From NCBI GenBank assembly GCA_040285745.1, contig JAUFOR010000008.1:1488001-1552000 (forward strand): a stretch of DNA of 64,000 nucleotides, in the 5' to 3' direction. Shown here one piece after another: positions 3,942 through 54,615 of this stretch. Below the pieces are notes generated by a model. That model saw nothing but the letters and a program-made list of their open reading frames with translations, was not told the origin of the DNA and did not search any database. Both the position numbers and the translations under genes were made by a program. This stretch comes from Barthelona sp. PCE. Lineage: Eukaryota. Every line of letters begins with the position of its first letter. Position 1 is the stretch's first letter.

Positions 3942-6900
3942 TTACTTTTTGCGGTATTCCCGCACAAGGAGCCTGTTGTAGAATACGAAGCGGTAAAGCG
4001 CGGTATATGCGTACCTGGCCTCGTGTAAAGTCGGAAATTCAATCATTGTTTGTGTATCACCGCGATCTATTACAACCACACAATGATCAATGGTAATACC
4101 ACTAATATCCCACACGCAGAGACGGTCCATGAGCACCATGCGCTGCTCAGTGTTAATCTTGAGCACAAAACATCCCATCAACACGAGACAGGTGGTGTCT
4201 GTCAGACGAATACATGCAACTAGTGGGAGTCCATCAAAGATGCGCTTATTTTCAACCTTCATACGACGAACACTGTGTTGCATGCATGCGAGTCTGTAGT
4301 CCACCGGTGACGTAAAGCTGTCAATTGAGAACACACGAGCAGGCCGAACAACCCCAACAGTATTACTCACAACTGGTTGGTTCTTGAATCCCATGAAGAT
4401 ATTAGATATAGCAAGAGAAATTCCGCCCAAAGGTTTTGTAATAAGCCCCAGTAAACCGTGCCCGATGCCCGCACCCAGACGCTTGTGCCCCTCATCGTGC
4501 TCCATTTGACTCGGCACTTGAACAACCCCAGTAACACCGTAAAAAAATCCGTCTCTAACGGACTTCCATGCCGCTGCGGCACCAGATGCTGAACTGAGCG
4601 GTGGCCGCATGCGCCTGTTGCGCTCCTTTTTGATGATTCGCGAATCCCGACTTCCCTGAACAAGGCCTCTTCCAATGGCACCAAAAAATGAGTGGAATGG
4701 CACACAAACTCCGCGAGCAATCCTTTCCTGGGTTCCCTGTCTCTCTTGTAGTGTTCCTGGAGCTTCACGTATCAAATTCTGAGCGGTTTGATGAAATCTA
4801 GTATTTGATTTCGACTCGTAGTCAATATCAATGGCTCTACGACGACGTTCTGACTTGAACGCGCCTACGGGGTTGCCAAACACCTCCAGAGATCCTACTA
4901 CAGTCCACAGTTGTGCTGCCAATGATACTGAGACGAGTTCCTTAAAATTGCCCAAAAATATGCCCCAATCCTGTACCGACTCTACCACCTCGTACGAGGG
5001 GACGACAAGCGGTGCGCGCTGTACACTGGCGAGGAATACGCTCAGTGCAGATGATACGGAAGATAAAAGAGAGGGTGGTGGAACATCGAAACGCTGAGCT
5101 ACACCAGCGAAATACGCCGCCAGTGCATCTTCCAGGACAAAACGGGACCCAAGAGGGTCCATCTCAAACGTTAGGAAGAGTGTGAAAGCCGAAAGTCCCA
5201 CTTTTTCGAAAAACACCTGAACTTTTTTCTCAGCTTCACTCACGTCACAAACATCCCACACCGCAGCGAACGCATGGTCTGCCTGTAGTACTAGATCGAA
5301 TGGGAGCACGCTTGTGATGTTGTTCATCACGGTCACTATATTGCTTCCGATATTAAGCTGGGAATCCTGCACGTTAACTACCAAGCATTCGAGCCATTCG
5401 GTCACAGGGAGAAAGCGCGTATCTCTCATCATAAAAGCGTGAATATGACAGTGGCTGCGACGGGCACATGCATCAGAGTTGGGGTCGATGAAAGACCAGT
5501 CCGGTTCGTTACAATCGTCAAATGCCGTAGTTGGGTTGACGAATACTGGTGAGAATATGACGGGCCAGGGTGTACCTGGGGTGAGATCGTCGAGTTGAAT
5601 ACGCTCGACGCCAGCTTCCAAAGCGACACGGTTGTCCCTGAGTTCAAAACAACCAAAAACATTGACAACAGAGAACACAAAGACCTCGCTTGGTACCATC
5701 GTGATGACGCATGCCTGGAGAAGAGGTGCACGCATCGCCAAAGTTAATACGTGCTTTCTTCTTGGCCGTGAAGATCGTCGCATATCCCAAAACGACTTAA
5801 CCCCCCGCAGAACCTGCAGTGGCTCTGCTAGCAAACGCTGCTTCTTTTCAACGAAGTCGGTCACCGACACGTACAGATTCTCACCCCTGTGCACTCGTAC
5901 AATCAGCTTAACACCATCATTGAGCTCGAACACCAGATCATTTTTCAGTTCGCTGTAGGACAGTTTGATTGGCGAAACCTCGTATCCGACGGCAGTCAGA
6001 ACAATTATTTCAGGGGTGTCAATGATCCTGTCAAGGCTGTAATACAAGCGATCGCCCTGTTTGATTATGTATGTTGGTGAAGCGTGATAATCTTGACGCA
6101 TACGCAAACATAAACTGCAATTATTCCATATAGAAAAGAGAGGTAAGTTGGTTCGGATGAGGACGCGGATACGCCCGTTAGAATAACTCACATACATTCC
6201 CATGAAACGTGTAGGGTGGGCGCTTATGTGTACCAGCTGCTTGGAAACGAACTTGAGCTCGTGAAATCCGGGTATGCTGAAGTCGAACTCTGCTGTGGGA
6301 CGGTAACCTTCATCAAATGATAATAATGACATTCGTGTGTTTGTGGGTACAACAAGCAGCGGCACCTCCGCACCAGGTTCTACATAGATACAGCTATTGT
6401 AGACGTCGGTGTCCGGGCCACTGAATACAATCATTACGGGTTGTGCTGTTAAGTTACAGAACGAATATCTCTCTGAAACGGTTACAACGCTGAATCCATA
6501 AGTAGGATCCGCACTCACAGACATGGTTACGGAAGCGACAAAAGCGTCACTTTGTTTAATAGCGTGCACCGAGCAAATAGACACATTCAAAACTGATATG
6601 GGATCTGAAAAGTCGCCGACGTGTTTCAAACGAAGCGCTTCCTCCTCATTGTGGATATCTGTTGTCGAAAGTGGGGCAGATTCGAGAAACTCGGTCGTTG
6701 CAAATAATGTGAACGAACTAATTTCAGTCATTGTCTCCCTCACAATCGATCGCGGATCAGCCATTGCGAAAACCAGCTTCAAATCTTTCCCGAGCGTCGA
6801 GCCAGCCACTGCCTCACCTGCTTTGATAAAGAGAGGTGCAACCCTCCCACATCCCTTTAACTGCCGTTTCAACTCCTTTGCAACAATATCGTCACCTATA

Positions 6901-9900
6901 AAGGAGTGTGGTGCTTGAGGGAGCGATGTTCGGGGCACAACATGCTTCTTGGGGAGAGAAATGTGCAACATCAGGGGGAAAGGCAGCATGTTTTCAATGC
7001 TGTAAGACTGTACAAGCGTCACTATATGAGAAGCGTGCACAGCCCTGCGTTCGTCGAACGAAATATCACAATAGCCGCTGTCGATAAACTCTATGTCATC
7101 GTGCGGTGTGTACTCAACATTTACCTGCGTTAGAGGGGCTGTTGGGGACTGAAACAACACTGCAGAGTCGCACTCATCGATGTTCGAAGACCATACACAG
7201 AGAGACGAAGCCTGACGTGGCATATCCGCGATGGAGACACTTGCTAGAACGTCACAAGATGCATCAAAATGGTATATATGAACTGGATCTCCTCCTAAAA
7301 GCATCCTTTCTGAAGGGAGTGGTGATACATCACTTTTTCTACCCTGATAAACAGAAAAAAAAGTTTGAGCTGGAAGCCTTGAGCATACTGAGAGCAGTGG
7401 AGTGATCTCAATTACGGTCTCGGTTATGCCCACGTTGATCTGGATGTTGAGCACACGCATTGCAAATGAGAGATGCGATAAATCAAGCACGTCAATGCTA
7501 CACTGCCCAATTGGAAGCTTTGATCCTGGAGCCTGCACAAACTGCAGTACCGTCGAGTGAATAAACTGGCCCTCTGGCACGTAAACCTCGTCAGCAAGTA
7601 TGTATCTACAGCCGTTGTACTGAATTGGAAAAATGTTGATTATCATTTGACCAGATCCAGCCATGAATCCCACGTTAACGCACTCACCGGCACCGACAGA
7701 GACGACGCTCTTGCGCTCGCCTACCCACTTGACACCTACCCGTAAAGGAAACGCAACGTGGCTTGACACTCTCAGCAACCCACGCACTGCGATGGAAACG
7801 ATGTCAGTCTGGTGAATCTCAACTGCAACGCGGCCTAGAATCTCCCCGCCGTGCAACGGAACCACGTCGGCGTGGTCTTCAGAAAGAGGACGATTAAACA
7901 CTGCTAGTGGGTGCAATTCTTCAACTATATTGAAGTAACTAATGCCGAGGCGTGACAGACGGACGTGTGGTAGAACACCGTCGCAGAAAACAAGCTTCAA
8001 GTAGCAAAACTCGAGATCTACATCGTGTGGAATCGTATCAAGTGCTGAGCCGCCAAAGTGTAACTCGTTCAGGAACAAACACCTATCATCTACTTCACCG
8101 TTCACGTTGCACGTGCGGGATCGGACCTCGTAGTAGACAGAAGAAGATATGCCGTTCGAAAACTCAACAGTGATGTCCCTCGGCACTGTATCCATGAAGA
8201 TGATGCTACTGATGTCCTCCCGTGCTTCTGCAATGCATTTGCCGTGTGCATTGACTAGGGTTGCGCACGAACGCATAAAATAAGCGCTGATGTCGATGAT
8301 GAATGGTGTCTTTAAATGGAAGAGCATTCGTATCTTCCTAATTGCAGAAAACCTCTCCAGCAGCGCGTCTGCACGCTTGATGAAGTCGATGAATGCGCCG
8401 GAGTCCAGGTCTACACGAGCAGAATCCAAAGTAAACATGGACTGCTCCAGCTCCGACGGAAGATCCAACTTTGTAGCTTTGAATATGTCATTGGTACTGA
8501 TAGGGTCGCTGGGCTGGCTGCAGAACGAAAGCGATGCGCCCACTGGCTCCAGGAGCAGCACTGTATCAGAATATGACACGGGAACTACACTAGCTGAAAT
8601 GCTGAGATCTAACGTCAAAAACTGCGCATTGCGGAACTTGATGAGATCGGCCAATGCTCCCATTACCTGCACCGAGAACAAAGTCTGCGCTGTTCCGGAG
8701 GATATTATACCAAAATCTAAAGATATGTCGCCAAACGTTAGCACATATCGGATCTGGTTGGATCTGAGCAGCTCGCTTGCCCGGCGGGCTGCGCCTGGGT
8801 AGTACGACTGGATGATGTCTCCTACCGTGGGTTGCGTGACAACCCTAACAAAATAGGCTTGTGCCAGTCGCAGTCGATCATAACCGGTTTCGTAGAACCT
8901 ATCAACGGCAAGATGTGTAAGCGAAGCGGCCATTTGAACGAGCGACACGCTACAGACGACGCGCCGAAGTGCACCTGCTAACAAAACAGCATCATTGATG
9001 AATATGGATATTTCTGTGTTTGAAACATCAAAGAATGTGTTCCAAATGACATTAGGTGTGTCAGTTAGTGCGTGAAAATCGTCGATGGCCTCCTGTAAGG
9101 AGTGGTCATTGATTTCCGGTGTCTCCGTGAATTCACACTCGCTGAGGGAAGATGCAGTATCATTGTCAATTTCCAGCAGTTCTATATCGCTAACCGATAG
9201 TTCGACAGGGTCAGGAGTGGGTGGTACAAAACCAGAACGGTACTCCGGTGTCATGCGGATATGGACAGACGAAGGACGTACGATATGCCTCTGCTGTGAT
9301 GTGGGAAATGTGATGGCGCCTCTAAAAGCAGACGGTACCGTTATAAATACTGATAACGAGACATCAGCGGAAATTGTGGGTTCTCGTAGGAGAAAAGAGT
9401 GTAGCCTGCCTGAAACGTCACACATGAGACAAAATACTGCACCCTTTCCATCACAATAATCGCCTAATGCCGTGGAAATCGCTACTCCGACGTTGGTGAC
9501 AGAGCACGCAATATCAAGAGCAATTTTTGCATCCACAAGTGCGTTGAGAATTGTTGACGAGGGCTCAATATCGTTAATGGCAGCAGTCAGCGGGTTTGCA
9601 GCCGTGGAGTCGTTCAAAAACAAAAGCGTACCAACCAAATTGATGAGTCGGATAACGGCAGATGAATCAAATAAAAAAAAAAAATCGCTTAGCTTGCTCC
9701 TGACGCGATACGACTGCATGTCCCCATGTTGTCGTGTGCACTTGACTGAAAACATAGGGGTGCCAACTAACAGCTCGCATTTTTCATCGAAAACATCAGT
9801 CACGAATGATATGTCTTCAACACATGCATTGACCTGTGTCATTCCGTGGAAGAACAAAACATCGCCCTGTAACCGGAAAGAAATGGTGCCCATATGAGCA

Positions 9901-12900
9901 TTGTCGTGAAACTCAATCAAGAATTCCCCCTTTTGCCGAATTAAAAACTGTGGACAGCTCTTTAAAGGTGGGTAGAGTGGGTAAAGCGTCTGCTTCGGCG
10001 TTGAAAACGAGAGAAGTCCTCTCTGCAGTGCCTTAAGCGAGATGTATCGGTGCGCTGCGAGAGCTGCCGACAGGTATGCCACGAGACAGTGTGTCACCAC
10101 GAGGTTCATACTGATATCAGCATCAAGCTCGTTGCGGCCACCTCTACCATCCACAGTGGCCAACAGATGACCAGAAACTAAAAGACTTAATTTGAGCAAA
10201 ACTTGATGATTAACAAAGCCCTCCAGCTTCGTTATACTCAATTCAACGCTCTTTTTGGTCGGCTTTCCGCTCATTAGTGCCTTGAGAAGCTGGATTCGAT
10301 AAGTAGCAATAGCTGTACAGCCACATAGTGTAATAAGTTCGTCAACAACCTCAACATAACTCACCGTCATAACAACACTGTTAATCCCATCATATGACAG
10401 AGGCTCTGTGGGGTAATCGACAGCTGAGTATCGCTGCCCCGATATGTAGCCCAAGAATGAGGCAGGAAAAAGTCGACCAGGTAATGCATATAACAACGGA
10501 CATGTTACAACACGCATATTCTGTATTCTTGCAGTCAGTGCTGAATGATGCAACTTCAGATAGAAAGATGCTGTGGTGGAAAAATCATCTTCATTTTCTT
10601 CCAATGAAGATGAGAGCCGTATAATACTTCTTCCGCTTGAGTTCTTCACCGTTAGATCCTGTACTGATGCGCAAAGCATGGAGTTGGGGTCTTGGCAGGA
10701 TTTCTCCACAGAGAGTTGGCTGATCCCAGCGTGCATGGAGGCTGTGTGGCCCATTTCGTCCCAATCGCTGCTCAACTCCTCAGGCAATACCAGCCCAGTA
10801 CTCAAGACCTGTAGGTCAAAACGCAATGAGCCCTCTGATTGCCTTTCGACAATGACTGGTGGAAGGAAAGAAAACCAGCAGGGTGGTAGAGCGTAGAGTA
10901 TGTAATGGCATAACAATGAGTATAGCTTTTCTAAATCGGCCAAGATATCGACGCAGGACATAAACATGCCAACTGTCGTTGTTCTATGTCCGTTTGCAGC
11001 ACCCAGACGAACTCGCAGGACAAATGAAGAGTCAGGTCTATTTTCAAGACACCACTGTGAAAACAGGGGCATATCAGTGTGCGAGATGGTTGTTTCAAAC
11101 TGTTGAAGAGGATCAATGCGCTCTCCGTCGATGATAATACTGTCTCGGTTTGAAACTGTTATCAATGGGGCGGTCCTTTGTTGGTTGATGCACTGAATCT
11201 TTCTCTGTTTATCCCTGTTCTTGAGTATAAACTTCATGTTCGAAACAACGTCACGAAACGAGAACCTGTGACTTACCGCGCCTCTCTGAACAGTGAGAGA
11301 TCGGAAAAAGGTTTCAAAAATGGTGGTGACTGGCTTAAAAACAAGAAACATCGACCAAAACGCAACACGGAGCATGAAGTCCGCGTTTGGTGCGGATAAA
11401 TGATCGAGAGATGGGGCTGAGCAGAGGCAAATGTCCATACGCTGCACGTCGATAGCCAGCCTGAAAAGCTCCAATTTTGATATTCTATCAATGAAACTGA
11501 CTGACAGTTGATCAACAAACGCTGCTATTCCCTTCTTAAGCACTATTTCAGAAGCTGATTCGGGTTCGAAACCTACGATATCAGAAATCGTGCTCAGAAG
11601 AAGGCGGAGCGAGTTTGATGTGCACCTGATATCGACGTGGTGCGATGCAAGGAAAAGAACAGCTTTTGATACTGAATTTGGTGGAAAGAGAACACTAAAA
11701 GTAAACTGAGACGGACACATCAAAACATGAGACGGTTCCTCCAGCCCGACTTCCACCGAGCCGATGTCTCCCTGCAGACCCTCGGGATGCTGCCTGACGA
11801 AAATCGAACCAACCTCTGCTAGAAAAACTCCACCCTTGACTTCGAGTCGAGCATCTATTTGGTTGATTCGAGCAGCCACGGTGAAACGCGGTGACGGGGT
11901 CGGAACGCCCTTGAATGAGGTTGTGTTGCTTAGAGCAAGCAAAGAAGTCTTGAAATCCCATAAAGGATCGAAGGTTGTATCCCCTACGCATTCCGAAATC
12001 ATAGATATGAGAAATGCAACATTCTTGTCTGACACGCGCAACGAAAGGTCTCCGATGCGCACTGATAACGTTGCGTTTCTGTTAACCGAACTGTAAATCA
12101 CATTCAGAAAGTCAGTGCTCTCGACAACATTATTCACAAACAATTTGGGAACGGACGAGACTGCATTGATACTCATGCCGTTGAGCGATGCTTTTGCAGA
12201 CACAAGAGGCACGACAAGAGACAGTGAACCTGTTGATCCCAGTAAAGAAAACGAAACGTTGGTGACCCTAAACGACATGCGAAAAAGAAAATTTTTCACC
12301 ATTTCGGGTACCCTCTCTATGCCGAAACGCCGTAAAAACAACGACGACCCCCACTGCTTAACCGCTATTAATGGTTTTAGAAACAGTTTTCCAATATTAC
12401 CGTACAGAACACGACCATGGGCGCTACTCAGCTCCCCACTTTCCATCTTACGACGCGCAATCATCCTGAAAACAATGAGCTGCTCTACGGGAGTATTCTT
12501 CTCAATGAGTTGTAGCAACCGCCGCCTTGATCCCGTCATCTTGTTATACTCACACCCGGATGCCACAAAGTTGGCGTACAGTACCCCGTACACACGCCTT
12601 ACCTGTGCGTTCTTCGAAAGTGACAAATTCCAAAGGTTCCGTTTCCGAGTGACAATAAGGTGCACCGCGTTAAACGCATACTTCAACCAAGCACGACGGT
12701 CTTCTAAAACTGGCACAGTGGGGCGTAGATGGATGAAACGACGTATCCTAACAATCCTTGACATCTTCTCCCTGAATGCAGAAAAAAAAGTAATCAACTT
12801 TGTTGGACATTCGAAACTCGCCCCAGACGCCTCAAGCTCAATATCAAAAGAGGGGATAGTATCAATATAACCAAAATAAATGCGTACAAAACCTTGCAGC

Positions 12901-13634
12901 ACAAAGTCGCTACAAACTTTGAAATTGTTAAAAACAAATGATGATAGATGGATTGTAAGCTTCTTCGTCACAAATTCATCTACAAACGCATCATATAGTG
13001 CACGATCTGCTGCGCTTTCATCAAGAGACTCCATTAATATACTGTATACTCGCTCAAAGCACTCATCGATACTTGACAGGGTACCCTGCTCATCTGTGGT
13101 ACCCAACGATATCTCATCAATGGTTATACGAAACGTACTGTTTCCATCTTGGAATTCCAGCGAAATATCCCTAAAAAGGACCTCACAGTTTCTCAAAATC
13201 GCGTCCTTGAGGTTCTTCGCTGTGTAGTTAAGCTTTTCCGCCTCTTTAGGATCCTTCAGCGCATTTGCAAGCTCATATTTGCTCAAGATGCCTGCTTTCA
13301 AAACATCAGCATCTATGTGACTAGCCTTACGCACTGACTCCCACACCTCCTCAATCGGTGGAACAGACGCATTTAAAGTAATGCCCGAGACCTGAATTAG
13401 CGTCCGCTTCTCCAAAAGGTTTTCCCACGGTATATGCATTAGTACATTTTCTACAGTACCGTCTGATATGCGCAGGAAGGGTATGATCTCCTGGAAGAAC
13501 ACTGGATCGAGGTTAAGTTGAGTCAACTCCACGATTCCAGCCAGAAGCTGAACACTAATGAGGTCAATATCAAAATCGGAGAAAAAAGGACCAATAAGTG
13601 AGCCCACTACTCTTTTTGCAACAATGGATAGTAT
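3942..13634 (-). CDS. VPS13: VPS13 family lipid transfer protein, ~3230 aa; proposed non-AUG (ATA) start at 13634
   Basis: Chorein-N (LIGPFFSDFD...IPWENL, WLKYAF), VAB-like repeats, VGSLEVFGNPVG, ATG_C-like GVTGVVQVP...GIGHGLLGLITKPLGG and a PH-like tail. The frame is open upstream of the track's GTG start up to a TAA, with no ATG in between. Confidence 0.9.
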   Translation of the reverse strand: MLSIVAKRVVGSLIGPFFSDFDIDLISVQLLAGIVELTQLNLDPVFFQEIIPFLRISDGTVENVLMHIPWENLLEKRTLIQVSGITLNASVPPIEEVWESVRKASHIDADVLKAGILSKYELANALKDPKEAEKLNYTAKNLKDAILRNCEVLFRDISLEFQDGNSTFRITIDEISLGTTDEQGTLSSIDECFERVYSILMESLDESAADRALYDAFVDEFVTKKLTIHLSSFVFNNFKVCSDFVLQGFVRIYFGYIDTIPSFDIELEASGASFECPTKLITFFSAFREKMSRIVRIRRFIHLRPTVPVLEDRRAWLKYAFNAVHLIVTRKRNLWNLSLSKNAQVRRVYGVLYANFVASGCEYNKMTGSRRRLLQLIEKNTPVEQLIVFRMIARRKMESGELSSAHGRVLYGNIGKLFLKPLIAVKQWGSSLFLRRFGIERVPEMVKNFLFRMSFRVTNVSFSLLGSTGSLSLVVPLVSAKASLNGMSINAVSSVPKLFVNNVVESTDFLNVIYSSVNRNATLSVRIGDLSLRVSDKNVAFLISMISECVGDTTFDPLWDFKTSLLALSNTTSFKGVPTPSPRFTVAARINQIDARLEVKGGVFLAEVGSIFVRQHPEGLQGDIGSVEVGLEEPSHVLMCPSQFTFSVLFPPNSVSKAVLFLASHHVDIRCTSNSLRLLLSTISDIVGFEPESASEIVLKKGIAAFVDQLSVSFIDRISKLELFRLAIDVQRMDICLCSAPSLDHLSAPNADFMLRVAFWSMFLVFKPVTTIFETFFRSLTVQRGAVSHRFSFRDVVSNMKFILKNRDKQRKIQCINQQRTAPLITVSNRDSIIIDGERIDPLQQFETTISHTDMPLFSQWCLENRPDSSFVLRVRLGAANGHRTTTVGMFMSCVDILADLEKLYSLLCHYILYALPPCWFSFLPPVIVERQSEGSLRFDLQVLSTGLVLPEELSSDWDEMGHTASMHAGISQLSVEKSCQDPNSMLCASVQDLTVKNSSGRSIIRLSSSLEENEDDFSTTASFYLKLHHSALTARIQNMRVVTCPLLYALPGRLFPASFLGYISGQRYSAVDYPTEPLSYDGINSVVMTVSYVEVVDELITLCGCTAIATYRIQLLKALMSGKPTKKSVELSITKLEGFVNHQVLLKLSLLVSGHLLATVDGRGGRNELDADISMNLVVTHCLVAYLSAALAAHRYISLKALQRGLLSFSTPKQTLYPLYPPLKSCPQFLIRQKGEFLIEFHDNAHMGTISFRLQGDVLFFHGMTQVNACVEDISFVTDVFDEKCELLVGTPMFSVKCTRQHGDMQSYRVRSKLSDFFFLFDSSAVIRLINLVGTLLFLNDSTAANPLTAAINDIEPSSTILNALVDAKIALDIACSVTNVGVAISTALGDYCDGKGAVFCLMCDVSGRLHSFLLREPTISADVSLSVFITVPSAFRGAITFPTSQQRHIVRPSSVHIRMTPEYRSGFVPPTPDPVELSVSDIELLEIDNDTASSLSECEFTETPEINDHSLQEAIDDFHALTDTPNVIWNTFFDVSNTEISIFINDAVLLAGALRRVVCSVSLVQMAASLTHLAVDRFYETGYDRLRLAQAYFVRVVTQPTVGDIIQSYYPGAARRASELLRSNQIRYVLTFGDISLDFGIISSGTAQTLFSVQVMGALADLIKFRNAQFLTLDLSISASVVPVSYSDTVLLLEPVGASLSFCSQPSDPISTNDIFKATKLDLPSELEQSMFTLDSARVDLDSGAFIDFIKRADALLERFSAIRKIRMLFHLKTPFIIDISAYFMRSCATLVNAHGKCIAEAREDISSIIFMDTVPRDITVEFSNGISSSVYYEVRSRTCNVNGEVDDRCLFLNELHFGGSALDTIPHDVDLEFCYLKLVFCDGVLPHVRLSRLGISYFNIVEELHPLAVFNRPLSEDHADVVPLHGGEILGRVAVEIHQTDIVSIAVRGLLRVSSHVAFPLRVGVKWVGERKSVVSVGAGECVNVGFMAGSGQMIINIFPIQYNGCRYILADEVYVPEGQFIHSTVLQFVQAPGSKLPIGQCSIDVLDLSHLSFAMRVLNIQINVGITETVIEITPLLSVCSRLPAQTFFSVYQGRKSDVSPLPSERMLLGGDPVHIYHFDASCDVLASVSIADMPRQASSLCVWSSNIDECDSAVLFQSPTAPLTQVNVEYTPHDDIEFIDSGYCDISFDERRAVHASHIVTLVQSYSIENMLPFPLMLHISLPKKHVVPRTSLPQAPHSFIGDDIVAKELKRQLKGCGRVAPLFIKAGEAVAGSTLGKDLKLVFAMADPRSIVRETMTEISSFTLFATTEFLESAPLSTTDIHNEEEALRLKHVGDFSDPISVLNVSICSVHAIKQSDAFVASVTMSVSADPTYGFSVVTVSERYSFCNLTAQPVMIVFSGPDTDVYNSCIYVEPGAEVPLLVVPTNTRMSLLSFDEGYRPTAEFDFSIPGFHELKFVSKQLVHISAHPTRFMGMYVSYSNGRIRVLIRTNLPLFSIWNNCSLCLRMRQDYHASPTYIIKQGDRLYYSLDRIIDTPEIIVLTAVGYEVSPIKLSYSELKNDLVFELNDGVKLIVRVHRGENLYVSVTDFVEKKQRLLAEPLQVLRGVKSFWDMRRSSRPRRKHVLTLAMRAPLLQACVITMVPSEVFVFSVVNVFGCFELRDNRVALEAGVERIQLDDLTPGTPWPVIFSPVFVNPTTAFDDCNEPDWSFIDPNSDACARRSHCHIHAFMMRDTRFLPVTEWLECLVVNVQDSQLNIGSNIVTVMNNITSVLPFDLVLQADHAFAAVWDVCDVSEAEKKVQVFFEKVGLSAFTLFLTFEMDPLGSRFVLEDALAAYFAGVAQRFDVPPPSLLSSVSSALSVFLASVQRAPLVVPSYEVVESVQDWGIFLGNFKELVSVSLAAQLWTVVGSLEVFGNPVGAFKSERRRRAIDIDYESKSNTRFHQTAQNLIREAPGTLQERQGTQERIARGVCVPFHSFFGAIGRGLVQGSRDSRIIKKERNRRMRPPLSSASGAAAAWKSVRDGFFYGVTGVVQVPSQMEHDEGHKRLGAGIGHGLLGLITKPLGGISLAISNIFMGFKNQPVVSNTVGVVRPARVFSIDSFTSPVDYRLACMQHSVRRMKVENKRIFDGLPLVACIRLTDTTCLVLMGCFVLKINTEQRMVLMDRLCVWDISGITIDHCVVVIDRGDTQTMIEFPTLHEARYAYTALYRFVFYNRLLVREYRKK

Positions 13635-26450: not shown

Positions 26451-27731
26451 TTACTGAGGAGATACATCCTGAATTTGCTCAGGTGTCTCGCCGTTAGCCT
26501 CTTCAACGAGCTCAGGAACGCTCTCCTCTGCTACAGTCACTGGTGCCGGGTTGAGCACACTCCAGACATTTTTCCAAAAACCTTTGCTATATGACCTGAA
26601 CTTGTTTTTATCATATGCCTCCATCAATACCTTGCAGTAGCACTGTGCACAGCCGCAAATCTCCAGATAACGACGGCGCTGCTCGAATAAATCGTTCATC
26701 AAGTATCGCTCCCCTTTGAAGTTCTTAGCGTTCTTAGAACGCATACATTTCTCTTTCAGGAACGGATACTCCTTGTACAGTTTGCCAAGCTCCCTTGTGA
26801 TCTCATTCTGGCGCTTCTTCTTTATCTTCATCTTCTGCTCCTTGACAAGCATAACAAACTTAGTGAGGATAGCCATGAGCTCCTTCTTCTCGGCGATCTT
26901 GCCCGTTTCCATTGTTGGTGTGTTACGGCCGACAAGATAAAGGTGATATAAAAAGAATATAAATACAACTGCGCCAATGGAGGCAGCAAAGAGTGATAGA
27001 GCCAGGTTGAACGTGCGGTAGTTGAGCATGACCAGCATTGTGCGCGCCCATGTGACTCGCTCCGGAGGTACTCCTCGCTTGATTATGGAGGCCATCAGAC
27101 CTGGTACGTTCAAGCTCCTGTATGTGATAAAACAAAGATACATGAGGATTAAGGAGTGGTGCACGAGGAAGTAGAGGAAGTAGCGGTAGTTGTTGTGGCC
27201 GAAACAGTTATTGAACCATACACAGTGATGATCGTGGCGTGCGTAACACTTATCGCATAATCTGCAATGACGGCTACGTGCAGGACGTAGGATCTTGCAC
27301 GTTTCGCAGCTCTTGAACATGTAAAGCGCAAAATCAGGTTCATAAATCTGCAAATACGATGCGACTGTTTTCCTATCAACAGTACCAGGGTCGGAGTTGC
27401 AGCAGATGATGAACCAGATCCAGCAGATAACGTACATAATCTGGAAGACTAAATCCTGTAACGGATCAACGTATTCACGTCCTTTCCACATGTATGAAAT
27501 ATAAATTCCACCAACAAGCAACACATAGAAGCCTTGAAATAAATGGTTTGGCTTATTTGCAGCATAATCAGCGAAGTTAACCAGACGTTTTCTAAGCGGT
27601 GCGGGGATTAAATAACGTACCGAAAAAAACATTCTTCCGAATGCGGACTCACGCAAACCCTTCATCTGCCAGACGAAAATGCCCACGAATAGCACGAAAA
27701 GTAATATGATTGGAAGATATACTAATCTCAT
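26451..27731 (-). CDS. DHHC palmitoyltransferase (SWF1/ZDHHC4-like)
   Basis: SDPG, CETCKILRPARSRHCRLCDKCYARHDHHCVWFNNCFG..NYRYF, several TMs, YSKGFWKN; ATG at 27731. Confidence 0.92.
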   Translation of the reverse strand: MRLVYLPIILLFVLFVGIFVWQMKGLRESAFGRMFFSVRYLIPAPLRKRLVNFADYAANKPNHLFQGFYVLLVGGIYISYMWKGREYVDPLQDLVFQIMYVICWIWFIICCNSDPGTVDRKTVASYLQIYEPDFALYMFKSCETCKILRPARSRHCRLCDKCYARHDHHCVWFNNCFGHNNYRYFLYFLVHHSLILMYLCFITYRSLNVPGLMASIIKRGVPPERVTWARTMLVMLNYRTFNLALSLFAASIGAVVFIFFLYHLYLVGRNTPTMETGKIAEKKELMAILTKFVMLVKEQKMKIKKKRQNEITRELGKLYKEYPFLKEKCMRSKNAKNFKGERYLMNDLFEQRRRYLEICGCAQCYCKVLMEAYDKNKFRSYSKGFWKNVWSVLNPAPVTVAEESVPELVEEANGETPEQIQDVSPQ

Positions 27732-30151: not shown

Positions 30152-32230
30152 ATGCCACGCTGTATTAACAGGGAGATTGTTATTAAAGAAGATTTGGTTT
30201 ATACTCCGAACGGCAAGGATAGATTCAAAATTGAGAAAGTTGATAGAAAACCTATTAATCAAGCAACATTTCCTTTTGATGAAGACGGAATCCCATTAGC
30301 TATCGATATAAATAGCTGCCCAGTTGTCTATGAAAATGTGAAAAAGACTTTGGGCAAAGGTCATTATCATAGCTCTTTGAATAGATGTCTATTTGACACA
30401 AAAACCTTCTATATTGTGAAGAAAGAACGATTCTCCCCACGTGAAACAATTAATGTTATGTTTTTCGAGCAGGAAGGAGATGATATTGTTTTTACTGATA
30501 TGGAAAGTTTCGAGTATTCAGGATCAGAACGCATTAATTTTCATTTCCTGGACAGAAACACGACCATATCGAAGATGCCAAACGATTTTCTTATCATTAA
30601 CTGGATTGATGGAGTAATTCACAGCACAAAGTCTATTCACCGCTTAGACAACTTAAATCACTGCATCATCAACCGGTGTCTGCTGGTCCTCTGCGACGAA
30701 GCGCTAAGAGCCTATTCTATGGATGATCTAACACTCGATCAATTCACTGAAATTCCAATAGAGGAGAACGAGCACTTGGTTTGTTGGGTAGGTGAAACTA
30801 TCCATCCTAATGCGGCGTATCTGGTATCGTACCCGGAGCACGACATATGTCACTTGGGCATCATTTATTATACAGTTACTGAGGATAAGTGTAAGATTTT
30901 GTGGTTACATGAGCTTTTTCCACAAATTATGGATCTATCAAATGGGCTATGTAATATAAGGGTCTGGCACCTCTCCGTGGAACTATTGGAGCTGACCATG
31001 ACATTTCAAATACACAGCATGACGCTTTTATGCGTAATCAAGGAAGGTGAAATGAAAGAGTTTCAATTTCACTTTCCACAGACAGTAATCACTAACATAC
31101 CTCCTTTTTCACCTGAAATCAATCACCTGAGGTATCTTGAGGAGTGTTTCGGAACGCTTAATAACTCCATTTTGAAATACAACAAATTTTTTGTTCTGAA
31201 GGACCGTTGCCTAGAGTGCAGCAATTTTAATACTGATTTTATCTGTGCCTTCCCAAATTGCGCTGTTTTCAATTCTAAATTAGGGATTTTTGGATTCAAT
31301 TTTTATGAAAATATCGTCTTTTATGAGAAGAGATCATTCAACAAGTTTCATTACACAACTCGCTCTGTCAACAAGCTCAAGGATCACATCTCCGTGAGCA
31401 TGCGTTTTGGGTGTTTAAGTAGTGCTGGTGAGGATCAAATCATAGATCCAAGCACATTCAATTTGCAGGAAAATGAGTTCAACTCCATTCGATTAAAGTT
31501 ACCCCAATGTGTTAATTTGTTGCAAATGAAGGAAAAGGATTTGCTTTGGTATGCTGAACGATGGGATGATGATGATAATAATGAGATCATAAATATATTC
31601 ATCACCTCGTTGGAGACAGGTTGTACAGTCAAGATCATTGACATGCTATCGCAGGGCAGGCTCTCCCTTGTCCATTATGACGAGCGCAACATCATTCTGC
31701 GTCACCAGACCAGAACACAGCAGTATTGTCTCAACGATGAGGGTATTTGGGAATTGAAGCTTGAGGTTTTAGGAACTGCCCATTTCAATCCGTTTTTGAT
31801 GGATTTATCCATATCTGCAACGAAAGGGGGTCATGTGCATGTCCGTGATAGTACTCAAGACCTGTCTGTTCAAGCGAAAATTGGAAAATTCATTATGTTC
31901 CTCGCACCGCGCTTGGTGCTATTTGATGTTGGTATTTTCCGCATTACAAAGCGCTGCCGCCTCACGAAGCTGGTGGATTTCGACGGGTTCACTGTTGATG
32001 AGAGGAACTGTCACCTTTCTCATAATTCCGTGTCGATATGCGCTGTTTCTAATTATATAATCAATCGACACAGATATGAGTTCAACGACACTCACATTAT
32101 CGATACAGAGGTTGTGCAGCTTTCTCTCAGTGACTGGTTGCAACAAGCCGATATTGTCAAGGTGGACTTTTTTAGAGATATTGACGAAGAATCATGCAGT
32201 GATGACATCATTGAATTGACTGTTGAGTAA
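30152..32230 (+). CDS. Hypothetical beta-rich protein, 692 aa (lineage-specific family)
   Basis: Long ORF; shares the MPR start and a C-terminal LxxF/WLxxAxIV motif with the 35868-38033 ORF. Confidence 0.8.
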   Translation: MPRCINREIVIKEDLVYTPNGKDRFKIEKVDRKPINQATFPFDEDGIPLAIDINSCPVVYENVKKTLGKGHYHSSLNRCLFDTKTFYIVKKERFSPRETINVMFFEQEGDDIVFTDMESFEYSGSERINFHFLDRNTTISKMPNDFLIINWIDGVIHSTKSIHRLDNLNHCIINRCLLVLCDEALRAYSMDDLTLDQFTEIPIEENEHLVCWVGETIHPNAAYLVSYPEHDICHLGIIYYTVTEDKCKILWLHELFPQIMDLSNGLCNIRVWHLSVELLELTMTFQIHSMTLLCVIKEGEMKEFQFHFPQTVITNIPPFSPEINHLRYLEECFGTLNNSILKYNKFFVLKDRCLECSNFNTDFICAFPNCAVFNSKLGIFGFNFYENIVFYEKRSFNKFHYTTRSVNKLKDHISVSMRFGCLSSAGEDQIIDPSTFNLQENEFNSIRLKLPQCVNLLQMKEKDLLWYAERWDDDDNNEIINIFITSLETGCTVKIIDMLSQGRLSLVHYDERNIILRHQTRTQQYCLNDEGIWELKLEVLGTAHFNPFLMDLSISATKGGHVHVRDSTQDLSVQAKIGKFIMFLAPRLVLFDVGIFRITKRCRLTKLVDFDGFTVDERNCHLSHNSVSICAVSNYIINRHRYEFNDTHIIDTEVVQLSLSDWLQQADIVKVDFFRDIDEESCSDDIIELTVE

Positions 32231-32873: not shown

Positions 32874-33051
32874 GTGGTTGTCATGCCTGTTTGCCTGCTT
32901 AACTTTGTTGGCTTTTTATCCATTTTCCGGTATCTGTTTCAGTCCAATTAGACACGCTTGCGAATAACACGCTATTTCGTAGAAGTAAATCTACCTGAGG
33001 ACGCGATCCTTCCTGAGTACTCCATTTCTTTCTCCCCTTTTCTTCAGTAAA

Positions 33052-33260
33052 CATGTTGAATGATGGAAGCATGTGGTTGACGGAACTCATGGGAGATTGA
33101 ATCTGTGAATAATGAATGTGCTGCGAAATACATCCCTTTCTTACATTCCGGATTTCTTTTTATTTGCTCGGGCAACAGGCAACGAAGAACTACGAAAAGC
33201 AATTAACAAGATGCCAGAAGAAAACAACGACATAACGAAGAGTTTAAATTTTTCAGATTT
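33052..33260 (+). mobile_element. 5' fragment of a related copy of the tyrosine-recombinase element
   Basis: 33052-33123 matches 33261-33332 (41 bp exact, 68/72 overall). A diverged leader follows, then an ORF start MPEENNDITKSLNFSDFM paralleling MSQTNIANNNEPKSLNFVEFM. Confidence 0.75.
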
Positions 33261-33401
33261 CATGTTGAATGATGGAAGCATGTGGTTGACGGAACTCATG
33301 GCAGAGTGAATCTGTGACTCATGAATGTGCTGTCCGAATTACGTCCTTTATCTTTAATTTTTAGTTCAAGAGCAACAGGTACTGAAGAACAACAAAGTAA
33401 C

Positions 33402-34493
33402 ATGAGTCAAACAAATATAGCAAACAATAACGAGCCAAAAAGTTTGAATTTTGTAGAGTTCATGGCAGCGAAGGACGTGCAATCCGTCACGAATGTAGTA
33501 TATTACACGGTCGGCTACGCAACGGCATGCTTTGACATTGACGAGAGGTTAGCAAGAATACCAAAATCTACCGATGAAGCGAATGCTATCTTGATGGCAT
33601 TAGTGGACACGGTGATCAGAGCGGCCACTGACAACACAACAGACTTAGATGAGCAACTTAAGTCACACTCTTTAAGAAAAATCGCAGATCGAATTTACAA
33701 CGGGCTGAGCGTGACAGGTGACCAGAAAGTGATGTTCGCGAAAACCAACATGAGATTTGTAATGAAGCACGATGGAATCGGAGTAGTGAATGACCCAATA
33801 GACGTGATCGATAACTTGATTGAGAGAGCGGGTAAGGGACAGACACAGGATGTCAAGATTAATACTACACTGAGAAGAAGACGTGAGGAAATCCCGACAA
33901 CCGCGAGATCCAGTGAGGGGCTGATGCAAATCGTCCAAGAGCTACAGAAGGATGAGGCAAGGATGTCTACCGGATATCCGTGCAACGAGGACCAAGTTAG
34001 ATGTATAATGGAGCAGGTCGCCAGGAGCGACAAACGTGAGCTACTCATATACTCACTAGGGAAGTTCGCAGCAACTCTGAGCGCCACAGCGGCCGTTGAG
34101 ACCGCTCACGAACTAGGATTGAACATGGAGAAAACCAACGAACTGATATGGGCCGCTGCCAACTTTGCACCAGAAGCAACAGCCTACAAAAAGGTAGTGT
34201 GGGAAGACGTACTTGCAGATGCAGCTTTTCACGCCGACTTGTATATCTCCCCGAAGCAGAAAGCTCCTGCGAGAGTGTACAACAACAAGAACCGTGGGAC
34301 GTACAAATCGAAGAAGAAGCGTAAGAAGATAAAAGCTGCATCTTCGAGGGATGATTGGGACAAAGTTCTCATATTCAATGACAGAGGTGGACTGCCGGCG
34401 CACGCGGAAGCTGATGCTATCATGCTCGACACTGTCCCAGACAGGTCAAAACTCAACGAGATGGTTGACGTGGCCCTGAATAAGATGCTATAA
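33402..34493 (+). CDS. Element ORF (putative Gag-like helical protein with basic tail, apparently fused to YR sequence)
   Basis: ATG at 33402; helical body, basic KSKKKRKKIK stretch; in frame with the HSLRSGG motif beyond its TAA. The Gag identity is inferred from position only. Confidence 0.5.
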   Translation: MSQTNIANNNEPKSLNFVEFMAAKDVQSVTNVVYYTVGYATACFDIDERLARIPKSTDEANAILMALVDTVIRAATDNTTDLDEQLKSHSLRKIADRIYNGLSVTGDQKVMFAKTNMRFVMKHDGIGVVNDPIDVIDNLIERAGKGQTQDVKINTTLRRRREEIPTTARSSEGLMQIVQELQKDEARMSTGYPCNEDQVRCIMEQVARSDKRELLIYSLGKFAATLSATAAVETAHELGLNMEKTNELIWAAANFAPEATAYKKVVWEDVLADAAFHADLYISPKQKAPARVYNNKNRGTYKSKKKRKKIKAASSRDDWDKVLIFNDRGGLPAHAEADAIMLDTVPDRSKLNEMVDVALNKML

Positions 34494-34726
34494 ACTCACG
34501 TTGAGAAAGAAGACGAGTTTACATTCACCCTACACTCGTTGAGATCGGGTGGTGTACTTCATGTTGAGAAAATCAGCAAAGATATGTCTTATTTCAAGAT
34601 GAAAGGTGGAGGAACGAAGCCACCTTCCAAGAATTCTGTAACCGATTACCTGCATTACGTGACAGACGAATCCAGACAGATGACATTTTGCTGAATAAGA
34701 CCGCGAGCTTCGTGGAATTCACTTAG
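34494..34726 (+). pseudogene. Degenerate tyrosine recombinase C-terminal catalytic region
   Basis: FTLHSLRSGG (HSLRSGG at 34533-34553), then in the -1 frame WRNEATFQEFCNR (W at 34607; Cys TGT 34637-34639 at the catalytic Tyr position); ends at TAG 34724-34726. Confidence 0.8.
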
Positions 34727-35138
34727 TGGGTGGGAACTCAATTACCCGACCTCAATCTTAGGAACTTATTCACGCCATTCAACTAGATATCTGTCAGTAA
34801 ACATGCATGGATCCGAGTGAACTCAGCCCCTGTGAAGTCAAAACTATGAGCAAAATCATTGGTTAATACTAAATAAAATTCTTGAAAAATAAAAAAATAA
34901 TCTTTCGTTCTTACATACATACTTAGCTAGTAACTGCACTCAATTTACCTTGTTCATTCACTATATTTAGGCTAGACTTCTGGTTTCAATATAATATCCC
35001 AAAAAACATGCAATAAATTTAACTAATTGTTAATGTGCTATTAAAAATTACATCATTTGTTAAATAAGAGCATCAATGTTCCATATGTGTAAAGCACGCA
35101 TGTGTATATTCATAAACACACCTTGGTATGTGTTTGTA

Positions 35139-35384
35139 TCACACATCCTCAAAATCGTTATATGCAAAACCAAAAGGAACTGGAGACTTGCGACTTTCAA
35201 CAAAATCCCCATACATTGTTTCTAGATTGATTGTATGAATGAATTCTTCGATTTCAGCTTTCTGCTCTGGGTTATCAGAGTCAAAAATGTTAAATGCAAG
35301 TTGTTGTGCTTGTGTAGAAAAATATTCAACAATTGAATTGTATAAGACAACTTTTTGGTCCATGTCGGACGGCTTTCTTGGCAT
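35139..35384 (-). CDS. Small hypothetical protein, 81 aa
   Basis: MPRKPSDMDQKVVLYNSIVEYF...; ATG after a pyrimidine-rich tract; protein-like composition. Confidence 0.45.
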   Translation of the reverse strand: MPRKPSDMDQKVVLYNSIVEYFSTQAQQLAFNIFDSDNPEQKAEIEEFIHTINLETMYGDFVESRKSPVPFGFAYNDFEDV

Positions 35385-35867
35385 AATAATAAAGCCCTTT
35401 TGAAAAGATAAAGAAGATAAATGGAAATGTGTGATAAATGGAGTGTGTTTTGACATATCAAAATGAGTTTATTATCTGACTAATATCTCTTTCACACGAT
35501 AGAAATGTCAGAAACTTATACAGTGGATATTTACACTTATAAATACACAGATTTCAATGTAGATGAGTTGTTTAAGATTAAAAGAATGAAAAGATTCCAA
35601 AACCAACAATAATGCAAGATTTTGAAGTATCTTGTATAAAGTTGGGTGTTTAACATCATCGATCCCGGGATAGGAGAGCCATTGTTCAACCTGATACCAC
35701 TTCAAAGACGCGTACAACTCGTTTTACCATGTGATCTAAGAAAGAAGTTTGAAGATCTTAGGCATTATGTTCTATATCAGAATGGTAATGTGTCGGTGGT
35801 TATATAATATAAATGGTCCTTAAATGGTCTTTTAGAGTGTTGCATTTGTGAAGCAAGCATGTCTAAA

Positions 35868-38033
35868 TCAATTTAAAGATTCATCATCATAACCCTCATA
35901 ATAATCGGGCATGTGGTACTCAACGATGGACGCCTCCGCCAGGAACGATGGAAGATGGAACGTTTCCACTGTGGGATTTATCGATTCCGGGTCTTCATCA
36001 ACGTTATATGTTATCAACACCATTGTCTTGGTCTCTTCTTCGTATGACATGTCTTGAACAACGTTGTTAGGCAGAGTTTGGTTGTGGAGATGATTTCTTA
36101 CAGATGGTAAGGTATCATTTGTGAAAAAACGCGTCTTAATTACACCGTCAACAATCTTTACCTTATATAAACCATTGCATACTTGAATGTACGAACCACC
36201 CACGAAATTTAAGAATCTGCCGCCCTCTATTTGCATATTTTCACTTTCATCATCATCACTTGATAACTGATACAGCAAAACGGGTTTCAAAAAGCTTCCT
36301 GTTGACCAGTCTAAACAGTGTAAATAATGCATCTGAGAATCTCCACTACACAAATAAGTGACAAAGAGCTGGTGGTTAATTTCAATTATTGGATTATGAT
36401 TGAAAAAAACTTGTAAAATTTCATCATTACAATCTGAGATAAAGTGCTTATCGAGCTTCACTCCATCATCATCAATCAAAAACTTGTAAAAATGTAATGA
36501 ATTGGTGCAATATATGCACACAGAGCCATCAACTGCAGCATAACAATCATTTACGTAATGATTATGTGGAATCTCTAAAATTTTTGAATTGCCCAGATAA
36601 CCATAGCAAGTACCGTCTTCTTCGTATTTGAGACAGAATGGCAACCCAAGAACCATGCATACAAAATCCAGATCCTCATCTTGATAATATTTTGTTACTG
36701 TGGGTTTTGTTTCTGTGTCCTCCCAGTGAATTTTAACGAGTTTAAGCCACTGTCCAGGATCGCAATTCTGTGCAAGCATATAAAAGTACTCTTCCTCAAC
36801 CGGATGAAAAGACAAAGTATTGTACATGCAATTTTTGCCAGTTCGATTCTTTATCATGACGATTTTCTTTTGTTTGAAGTAAAAGAAACACTGGCTGCTA
36901 TGATCAATATCTGAAAATTGTGCTACTCCATCGAAAAAAGAAATCGGAGACTGAAGATCACTCAAATGCATAATTTCACCACTAATATCTCTATACTTGA
37001 TAGGACCATATACTCCTGTACGACCGCAAACTCCATATAAAGTGCAGTATTCATCATGAAAAGAATTAGTTAAGTCAATATGCTTTGGTTCATCGCAGTG
37101 TGGATCGTAGCACCCCAAACTACCACTTGATGTCTTCAATTTCTCGTCTTCTATGTGAACAACGGTGCATAATAACCCGTCATAGAAGAGCGCTGAAAAT
37201 TCATCCTTGGTCAGTGTTAGTATGGCAAAACCAATAATAAATTCTGTTTTCAAGTCTAACTGTGGGAATCTTTCAATTAAGTCAAGACGGTTTCGTTGAC
37301 TATCGATTAAGATCATTTCTTTAAAGCCATCCTCATATTTTGAAAAGAGAACACAATTGGCATTGTAGCATCCAATACAGATATTCGGAATTGCCTCAAG
37401 CTGAACAATATCCGGTTCATGTGCCTCATCCATATCATCCGCTGAGAAATTGTAGTGATATAACGAAAAATCAAATTCATGTTTGCTCAGAATTATGAAT
37501 GAAGAAACTGTAGGAATGGAAAAATAATTATACTCTCCAAGGCATCTACACTGCCCAGTCATAATGTTTAGTATGTAACACAGCTGCAACTGACCGTTGA
37601 AATTGTTGGCTTCTATCTGGGTAATGGAGAATAAAATATGTTCTTCATCTATAGGAAACGTATCTCTGGATACAAATTGTTCTTGGTTGATCCCAAAAGG
37701 GAAAGGAATCTTTCTGTGTGTGTGTTCATCACTGTTAATTTCGTTGAAGAAGAGGATTTTGAACCCAGTTAAAATATTTTCGATTGAAAAATTTTGCTCA
37801 ACAATAATGTATCTTGTTCCAGCTTTTTGCTTATAATAATACTGAATAAATTTGCTATTTTCTTCGAGATAACCGCAAAAATCTTTGCCTTCTATGGTAC
37901 TTGCAATCAGACTTTTAATATCAAAATTATCTCTGGAATTGACTAGTGTAACACCTTTGCCCTTAAAAACAATTCTTCCCTCAGGATATGACTCAATAAC
38001 CAGGTCATCCTCAAATTTACGAACCCTAGGCAT
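35868..38033 (-). CDS. Hypothetical beta-rich acidic protein, ~721 aa (probable distant paralog of 30152-32230)
   Basis: ATG at 38033 (MPRVRKFEDD); C-terminal FHLPSFLAEASIV. Confidence 0.8.
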   Translation of the reverse strand: MPRVRKFEDDLVIESYPEGRIVFKGKGVTLVNSRDNFDIKSLIASTIEGKDFCGYLEENSKFIQYYYKQKAGTRYIIVEQNFSIENILTGFKILFFNEINSDEHTHRKIPFPFGINQEQFVSRDTFPIDEEHILFSITQIEANNFNGQLQLCYILNIMTGQCRCLGEYNYFSIPTVSSFIILSKHEFDFSLYHYNFSADDMDEAHEPDIVQLEAIPNICIGCYNANCVLFSKYEDGFKEMILIDSQRNRLDLIERFPQLDLKTEFIIGFAILTLTKDEFSALFYDGLLCTVVHIEDEKLKTSSGSLGCYDPHCDEPKHIDLTNSFHDEYCTLYGVCGRTGVYGPIKYRDISGEIMHLSDLQSPISFFDGVAQFSDIDHSSQCFFYFKQKKIVMIKNRTGKNCMYNTLSFHPVEEEYFYMLAQNCDPGQWLKLVKIHWEDTETKPTVTKYYQDEDLDFVCMVLGLPFCLKYEEDGTCYGYLGNSKILEIPHNHYVNDCYAAVDGSVCIYCTNSLHFYKFLIDDDGVKLDKHFISDCNDEILQVFFNHNPIIEINHQLFVTYLCSGDSQMHYLHCLDWSTGSFLKPVLLYQLSSDDDESENMQIEGGRFLNFVGGSYIQVCNGLYKVKIVDGVIKTRFFTNDTLPSVRNHLHNQTLPNNVVQDMSYEEETKTMVLITYNVDEDPESINPTVETFHLPSFLAEASIVEYHMPDYYEGYDDESLN

Positions 38034-53547: not shown

Positions 53548-54615
53548 TTACACAGATATCTTACCGTAGACATAACCAATGTTCATTGTATCGGTTTCCC
53601 AACCATAGTACATCAAGAATTCATCCCCCAATGCTTTAGCAGGATATAACATGACAAATTTCCGTTGGTCATCATCAAAAACTGGATTATCCATAACAGT
53701 AAACGATTTGACATGAGCAGTTGTTTGTTCACGGTCAATATGATCAATTTTGTATCCTATCATGCTTGTATGATCAACAAAATAATCTGTAATTGATGTA
53801 AAACCGTCAACATTCATGTATTCACCATCGTGTTGAACAAAGAAATACTGTGTCTCATATGATCCGTCGTCAGTAAAGGTCAATTCGATGTAATATACTT
53901 CATTCTCGTAACTTTGGGATGCAAAAAAGCAAACTTTCTCAGTTTCTTCGTTATAATCCATCAAAAGAGTTGCTGGGTTTAGGCTCAAGGGCAGCACCTC
54001 ACATTCACTGCTGTCAATCCTGAACAAGCACATCTGTCGATGTCCAATATAATTGATTGAGAGCATAACCCAGTCTTTTTTCAATATTCTTATGTCAATG
54101 ATTTCGTGACACATGGGGATGTTTTGGGTGGTGCGCTCACCAATACTTCCATCATCATTAATGCTGAAAATTTCCAAAGTGTTGTTGGTTTCTGTGTTGC
54201 CAAGTATGAGTTGATTTGAGGTGCAGTGCACAGACCAACTTTGGAAATCCCAGACGTGCTGCCCACCAAGCTCGATACATTGCGTTAATGGGTTGAAAAT
54301 CAATTCTTGAACAAATACGGATGCACAAAAGGCAAAAAAGTATCCTTTATCCCCATTAAACACAAAACAAGCATTGAAAGGTTCAGTATTAAGGATAGGA
54401 TGAGCTAAATAATGCTCTGTCTTTGTGTTAGAATTAAAATTGTGTAATTGAAGCATAATTTTCTTCACATCTTCTACAATCTCAAATTGTGCTGTCAGAA
54501 CGATGCCTGATTGGACAATCACTGAACTTTCTACATTTTCAAAAAGATGAAAGTTCTCTTTAACGTTTCTTTTAGCAGGAACATCCTCACTTGCAAGTTG
54601 GCTGACAGTAGGCAT
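53548..54615 (-). CDS. Hypothetical beta-rich (propeller-like) protein, 355 aa
   Basis: Long ATG-started ORF with a short beta-strand pattern. Confidence 0.75.
   Translation of the reverse strand: MPTVSQLASEDVPAKRNVKENFHLFENVESSVIVQSGIVLTAQFEIVEDVKKIMLQLHNFNSNTKTEHYLAHPILNTEPFNACFVFNGDKGYFFAFCASVFVQELIFNPLTQCIELGGQHVWDFQSWSVHCTSNQLILGNTETNNTLEIFSINDDGSIGERTTQNIPMCHEIIDIRILKKDWVMLSINYIGHRQMCLFRIDSSECEVLPLSLNPATLLMDYNEETEKVCFFASQSYENEVYYIELTFTDDGSYETQYFFVQHDGEYMNVDGFTSITDYFVDHTSMIGYKIDHIDREQTTAHVKSFTVMDNPVFDDDQRKFVMLYPAKALGDEFLMYYGWETDTMNIGYVYGKISV

Follow-up and report, generated by a model that had tools for sequence, protein, structure and literature searches.

The 64,000-nucleotide stretch of the Barthelona sp. 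PCE genome analyzed here (contig JAUFOR010000008.1; referred to below as the window) carries a 390-aa open reading frame (ORF; P0001) with no known domain, behind whose stop codon lies a short stretch faintly resembling the C-terminal end of a tyrosine recombinase (Table 1). With a probability of roughly 0.55, the locus holds an ordinary protein-coding gene that barthelonids alone possess, and the resemblance of the tail in its 3' flank arose by chance. An earlier interpretation made from the letters alone (hereafter the original prediction) had described a hidden, internally deleted DIRS-like mobile element of 1.5 kb, joining a Gag-like ORF to a recombinase tail. The locus is not a DIRS-like or otherwise recognizable mobile element, and nothing here can act as a recombinase, because the recombinase-like piece lies behind a stop codon and no first catalytic Arg was found.

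The codon-usage score of the 390-aa ORF, 0.130, corresponds to the 58th percentile of true coding windows. The ORF has no Pfam family match, and the ESM Atlas returned no usable neighbour for it, the Atlas model having a predicted local distance difference test (pLDDT) score of 0.34. Two protein searches, one word-based (5.8 billion proteins, 4065 candidates) and one an exhaustive HMMER search of 1,835,955,588 representatives with the 428-aa read-through, returned two proteins alone (HMMER E<=0.001): the ORF itself and a hypothetical protein of 307 aa, PCE1_000498 [Barthelona sp. PCE] (P0002). The latter is encoded on another contig of the same assembly and is therefore a paralogue rather than an orthologue. 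The two proteins are 57% identical over residues 35-326 of the ORF in a gapless alignment, and P0002 ends at a Lys-rich patch matching ORF residues 327-337, residues 35-337 being common to both paralogues. Two frames that remain open at 57% identity suggest that both paralogues are under selection as proteins. The N-terminus of P0002, MSEDNNDAAKIFNFSEFM, aligns from residue 28 of the ORF onward, and it is matched by MPEENNDITKSLNFSDFM, the peptide encoded in the upstream copy (copy A) of a tandem duplication at the 5' end of the gene, so that the true start is probably ATG 33402 and not ATG 33321. The gene most likely spans ATG 33402 to TAA 34493. Its predicted product is mostly helical and carries a Lys-rich patch near residue 330, and this orphan gene has one diverged paralogue elsewhere in the same assembly, with both frames kept open. 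The lack of any family or structure match, relatives confined to one genome, paralogues open over about 300 aa and normal codon usage are features shared with protist orphan families; unlike typical families of this kind, the gene has a tandemly duplicated 5' region and a coding-like stretch behind its stop.

The TAA that closes the ORF is a true stop, since TAA ends 23/29 large ORFs in the window (TGA 4/29, TAG 2/29). Frame 0 reads ...DRSKLNEMVDVALNKML (ending NKML), TAA and then THVEKEDEFTFTLHSLRSGGVLHVEKISKDMSYFKMKG, and it stays open for 66 codons until TGA 34692-34694. If the gene ends at the TAA, the sequence behind it would be 3' untranslated or decayed. In tyrosine recombinases, the first catalytic Arg (box I) lies about 95-120 residues before the HxxR motif of box II, and the nucleophile Tyr follows the box-II His by about 35 residues. 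A box-II HxxR is present as HSLR (34533-34544); it follows the TAA but keeps the frame of the ORF. The post-stop frame contains ...GGGTKPPSKNSVTDYLHYV and reads ...HSLRSGG...MKGGGTKPPSKNSVTDYLHYV, and 38 residues past the His of HSLR it holds a Tyr (34647-34649, in TDYLH) that requires no frameshift. A second HSLR occurs at 33666-33677 (ORF residues 116-119), inside the conserved core, where the paralogue has HTLK; with a second HSLR in the same ORF, HxxR alone carries little weight. The peptides quoted in the original prediction are present as written, both in frame 0 and in the frame entered at TGG 34607. The -1 shift that it placed near 34605 is unnecessary, as frame 0 is itself open, and the shifted frame, which places Phe at H+34 and Cys at H+35, shows codon usage at background level: its log-odds score is 0.007 vs 0.018 for frame 0 continuing, values that about 20% of the stop-free windows read off frame attain. 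The related argument that a TGT codon stands one change from the TAT of the nucleophile is unsupported. Neither placement of the nucleophile, the Tyr of frame 0 or the Phe and Cys of the shifted frame, has statistical backing. The open length behind the stop was dropped as evidence, since at least 63 open codons follow the stop in 4/29 ORFs.

What likeness the tail has to a recombinase comes from a short motif, H-S-L-R and, 38 residues later, a Tyr. The terminal motif invoked in the original prediction (HSxRxG followed by an aromatic tail) stood in part: HSLR is present, and the strict form H[ST].R.G occurs only 0.017 times per random window copy, but a loose form (H..R, 22-30 residues, W, 8-9 residues, [YFC], 1-2 residues, R; any frame relation) is expected 0.6 times per Markov-1 random window and was found at least once in 45% of 60 random window copies. 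No recombinase family was matched at E<=10 in Pfam, NCBIfam or PHROGs by the read-throughs or their pieces, and no PDB sequence was matched by the read-throughs or tail pieces. Scoring the repaired peptide against recombinase profiles, a check named beforehand, likewise gave no match. Because HMMER filters hide matches above E ~0.1, a separate set of profiles was built from 15 recombinases, namely lambda Int, P1 Cre and 13 E. coli K-12 loci with PF00589. Against the box-II hidden Markov model (HMM) of this set, the joined, -1 shifted peptide scored 1.8 bits. The best peptide of the region reached 10.3 bits, from FTLHSLRS alone, and was exceeded by four other window loci (up to 14.0 bits) in a frameshift-aware background of 382,872 window peptides, with one frameshift allowed at any position. 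The three tail pieces scored 0.3-1.9 bits with the same models, and the 457-aa read-through 4.7 bits summed over three stretches.

The hhalign comparison returned a probability of 0.62% (P = 0.09); among the controls, 15.6% of 154 real protein segments and 4.3% of 140 shuffles scored as high. In Smith-Waterman comparisons with the 15 recombinases, the maximum score was reached by 11.6% of ~818 real stop-free peptides and the sum of the top three by 4.2%. In the HMM, hhalign and Smith-Waterman tests, the tail reaches only the top 2-16% of background. A tblastn search of 50,697 phage records with the 66-aa post-stop peptide gave no match at E<=10, nor did this peptide find anything in the E. coli K-12 chromosome. 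AlphaFold2 models of the 428-aa read-through and the 194-aa tail (mean pLDDT 33.9 and 41.1) were too poor for a fold search. All sequence statistics on the tail lean the same way, with p ~0.02-0.15, and one language-model look-up is clearly positive. All of these draw on the one short motif that led to the choice of the site, and so they are not independent. By sequence statistics, the likeness of the tail to a tyrosine recombinase end is not distinguishable from chance. The identification of a recombinase tail is only partly upheld: the ESM Atlas favours it and several statistics lean in its direction, but none is significant and no profile is matched.

Several observations weigh against a chance resemblance. 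In the ESM Atlas, the 30/30 nearest named clusters of the 66-aa post-stop peptide are tyrosine recombinase or integrase fragments; the best of them scores 0.96, against a level of 0.95 that, according to the tool, roughly 1 in 100 shuffled proteins attains. The 166/256 features shared with the peptide are on the low side. In the Smith-Waterman alignment with Cre, the H, R and Y fall on Cre's HSAR and Tyr with z = 4.6, a score matched by 0.3% of 300 shuffles before correction for 15 comparisons. Compared with real-peptide nulls, the tail ranks in the top 1.7-6.6% with the purpose-built HMMs, which are bacterial and phage profiles only, none being from eukaryotic elements. Codon usage over the first 37 post-stop codons (34494-34604) scores 0.158, the 68th percentile of true coding windows, a value reached by 1.7% of stop-free off-frame windows. 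In addition, GC content remains coding-like (0.42-0.46) until ~34840 and then falls to 0.25-0.30.

These observations favour an alternative that is possible though doubtful, in which the last ~120 read-through codons, from VLIFNDRGG (~residue 349) to TDYLH (441-445), represent a dead recombinase C-terminus, decayed and inactive. Its source could tentatively be a Crypton-like element or a captured integrase fragment, cut by the TAA and either fused in frame to the orphan gene or originally part of it. The arrangement of HxxR, Tyr and a His two residues past the Tyr in one frame is consistent with this, the distance from H to Y being 38 residues vs 35 in Cre. The only alignment returned by hhalign, although non-significant, is collinear over the catalytic landmarks, with W.DV, K, lF, HxxR and Y in order. 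A strict frame-0 pattern H[ST].R.G...Y.H, defined after the sequence was seen, has a single occurrence in the window and none in 40 random copies. As a likeness to Cre and XerD-type prokaryotic recombinases (PF00589), the Smith-Waterman alignment sets HSLR on Cre's HSAR, GGG on GGW and Tyr on Cre's Tyr, with a 3-residue insertion, and the ESM Atlas neighbours, 66-73 aa long, are fragments of bacterial recombinases; unlike in genuine members, the similarity is non-significant under 15 comparisons and real-peptide nulls. Against a dead C-terminus stand the absence of any profile library match at E<=10, the hhalign and Smith-Waterman scores that real segments and peptides commonly equal, the two unusable structural models and the choice of the candidate for its motif. 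No relative carrying the tail was found among 1.84 billion representatives. Moreover, in the same non-significant hhalign alignment the column of the first catalytic Arg holds Glu285, a Glu in both paralogues.

If the relic is real, the nearest known analogue would be Crypton and the host genes derived from it. Cryptons are described as recombinase-only DNA transposons ending in direct repeats of 4-6 bp, and their domesticated descendants as losing residues of the R-H-R-Y tetrad (PMC3212892). Like Crypton or Crypton-derived host genes (DUF3504; Gcr1/Cbf2-type), the locus has a single ORF with a recombinase-like region and no reverse transcriptase (RT), and, as in domesticated Cryptons, an H-x-x-R...Y stretch without the first Arg. 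Unlike Cryptons, it has no PF00589 or DUF3504 match at E<=10, the part that resembles a recombinase follows a stop, the known copies are only two and have diverged, and in place of 4-6 bp terminal repeats there is a 12-mer of near-chance significance. A more far-reaching version is unlikely: the two family members would represent a Crypton-like lineage of tyrosine recombinases, domesticated, strongly diverged and present in barthelonids alone. The C-terminal half of the read-through protein (residues ~270-445) would then form the whole catalytic domain minus the first Arg, and in the window copy a recent TAA would have removed the last 66 codons, or readthrough would still yield a longer form.

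It is quite improbable that the locus encodes a live, longer protein, with the TAA bypassed either by readthrough or by a putative 36-nt in-frame intron (GT 34470 to AG 34505, identified by eye), so that some of the product would end in the recombinase-like tail with its Tyr. In frame 0 the 66 codons that follow the stop are open, the first 37 of them coding-like, and stop-codon readthrough has been proposed for the metamonad Trichomonas in a 2026 preprint. However, TAA is the usual stop in the window, the annotated protein stops at it, and the codon score over all 66 post-stop codons is 0.096, second among the 10 genes with at least 20 open post-stop codons.

Elements of the DIRS, Ngaro and VIPER types need an RT, RNase H and characteristic repeats, and DIRS proper also a methyltransferase. 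The locus shares with them only the short H-S-x-R-x-G...aromatic motif invoked in the original prediction. No RT, RNase H, integrase or transposase domain was found in the 1.5-kb unit or in 30/31 window ORFs of at least 200 aa, the scan covering these ORFs; the original prediction likewise saw neither RT nor RNase H. Between 32000 and 36000 there are no terminal inverted repeats, internal complementary region or split direct repeats; inverted repeats do not exceed 18 nt and are non-terminal, and the sole long direct repeat is the 5' tandem duplication. The boundaries proposed for the unit have other explanations: 33261 is the start of the second 209-bp tandem copy, and 34805 is the end of a recurring 12-mer. 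This 12-mer, TCAGTAAACATG, was not accepted as a target-site duplication, as 3.7% of random segments of the window match the 3' flank equally well (p ~0.04), and its 5' copy falls within a promoter-like motif composed of a T-rich tract and TCAG. A deleted third copy of the 5' core after the 3' 12-mer, seen by eye, was unsupported by local alignment. Mobility also finds no backing in copy number: at protein level the family has two known members, 57% identical, instead of being multicopy, and blastn within the window detected no other copy of the locus beyond the 5' duplication. It is thus hardly credible that the locus is an internally deleted 1.5-kb DIRS-like retroelement with the stop and the -1 shift as signs of decay, because, although the quoted peptides exist, the 12-nt direct repeat brackets the unit and a tRNA gene lies ~190 bp upstream, neither the unit nor 30/31 large window ORFs contains RT, RNase H or methyltransferase, the ORF called Gag-like matches neither Gag nor any other family, and the frameshifted reading has neither a profile score nor codon usage to commend it.

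Table 1. Coordinates of features at the locus (positions within the window)
Feature	Start	End	Strand	Basis or remark
tRNA-Phe (GAA)	32789	32863	+	ARAGORN; Rfam tRNA 69.1 bits; T-run terminator behind
Copy A of the 209-bp tandem duplication of the gene's 5' region	33044	33252	+	Repeat search, blastn, alignment
Copy B of the 209-bp unit	33253	33469	+	Repeat search, alignment
390-aa ORF (P0001), no known domain	33321	34493	+	ORF list; no family match
TAA stop of the 390-aa ORF	34491	34493	+	Sequence reading
Post-stop frame-0 open stretch, 66 codons; candidate dead recombinase C-terminus	34494	34691	+	Translation
-1 frame from TGG 34607, WRNEATFQEFCNR...	34607	34723	+	TAG at 34724-34726; present, unsupported
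Second exact copy of 12-mer TCAGTAAACATG (first: 33044-33055)	34794	34805	+	Exactly two matches in window

The window is gene-dense and eukaryotic in character, with ~42% GC and long, intron-poor ORFs, and the neighbouring genes are ordinary ones, including those for a kinesin, a protein kinase, NMD3, TBCC, a DHHC protein and SF-assemblin. The tRNA-Phe gene is the upstream neighbour, ~190 bp ahead of the first repeat copy. The promoter, leader and first 18 codons of the gene have been duplicated in tandem as a 209-bp unit. Copy A contains a T-rich tract with TTCAG, a 15-codon upstream ORF (uORF) at 33053-33100 (MLNDGSMWLTELMGD) and the diverged first 18 codons, and copy B has its uORF at 33262-33309 (MLNDGSMWLTELMAE) together with both candidate starts, the annotated ATG 33321 and the more probable ATG 33402. 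Repeat search aligned 84 nt of the two copies at 89% identity with a spacing of 209, blastn gave 89% over 94 nt, and alignment of the 209-bp copies gave 81% mean column identity. The 84-nt core (33040-33123 / 33249-33332) is 89% identical, and the remainder of the unit is far more diverged; within the core, the first 13 codons of the 15-codon uORF (MLNDGSMWLTELM..) are nucleotide-identical between the copies. This similarity suggests gene conversion or a constrained regulatory element. A structured RNA in the core was rejected, as Rfam recognizes the tRNA alone and the fold z-scores range from -0.43 to 1.06. A T-rich tract followed by TTCA(G) occurs within ~40 nt of many ATGs in the window (for example 26451-27731 on the minus strand, 49293, 53548-54615 on the minus strand and 33025-33055); it is therefore read as promoter or initiator sequence of this genome, which is what it looks like.

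Several other ORFs in the window lack a Pfam family or have weak matches. The left neighbour (30152-32230, plus strand) is a 692-aa ORF without a Pfam family, for which the word-based search returned itself alone. A small 105-aa ORF whose C-terminus is acidic (35139-35456, minus strand), also without a Pfam family, sits in the AT-rich spacer before the next gene. This right neighbour (35868-38033, minus strand) is a 721-aa ORF, likewise without a Pfam family, that is part of a large family, with 36 further Barthelona sp. PCE proteins of 663-732 aa and 43-53% identity on six contigs. In addition, ORFs of 1204 and 3165 aa lie tail to tail at 313-3927 (plus strand) and 3942-13439 (minus strand); both have weak VPS13_N-type matches under the Pfam cut-off and probably encode bridge-like lipid-transfer proteins.

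A search of a limited set of papers found no report of a tyrosine-recombinase element in metamonads, and the barthelonid genome paper mentions transposon homologues for Skoliomonas only, its supplements possibly holding more (PMC11316075). The disagreement between a language-model look-up and profile methods on a 66-residue fragment calls for caution. Collectively, the finding matters little as it stands: it amounts to a hypothetical gene in a compact protist genome, with no demonstrable hidden mobile element. If the tail were a true recombinase relic, recombinase-type elements would once have been present in barthelonids, whose mobile DNA is undescribed, and if the two-member family were a domesticated Crypton-like lineage, this deep metamonad branch would thereby gain its first trace of such an element.

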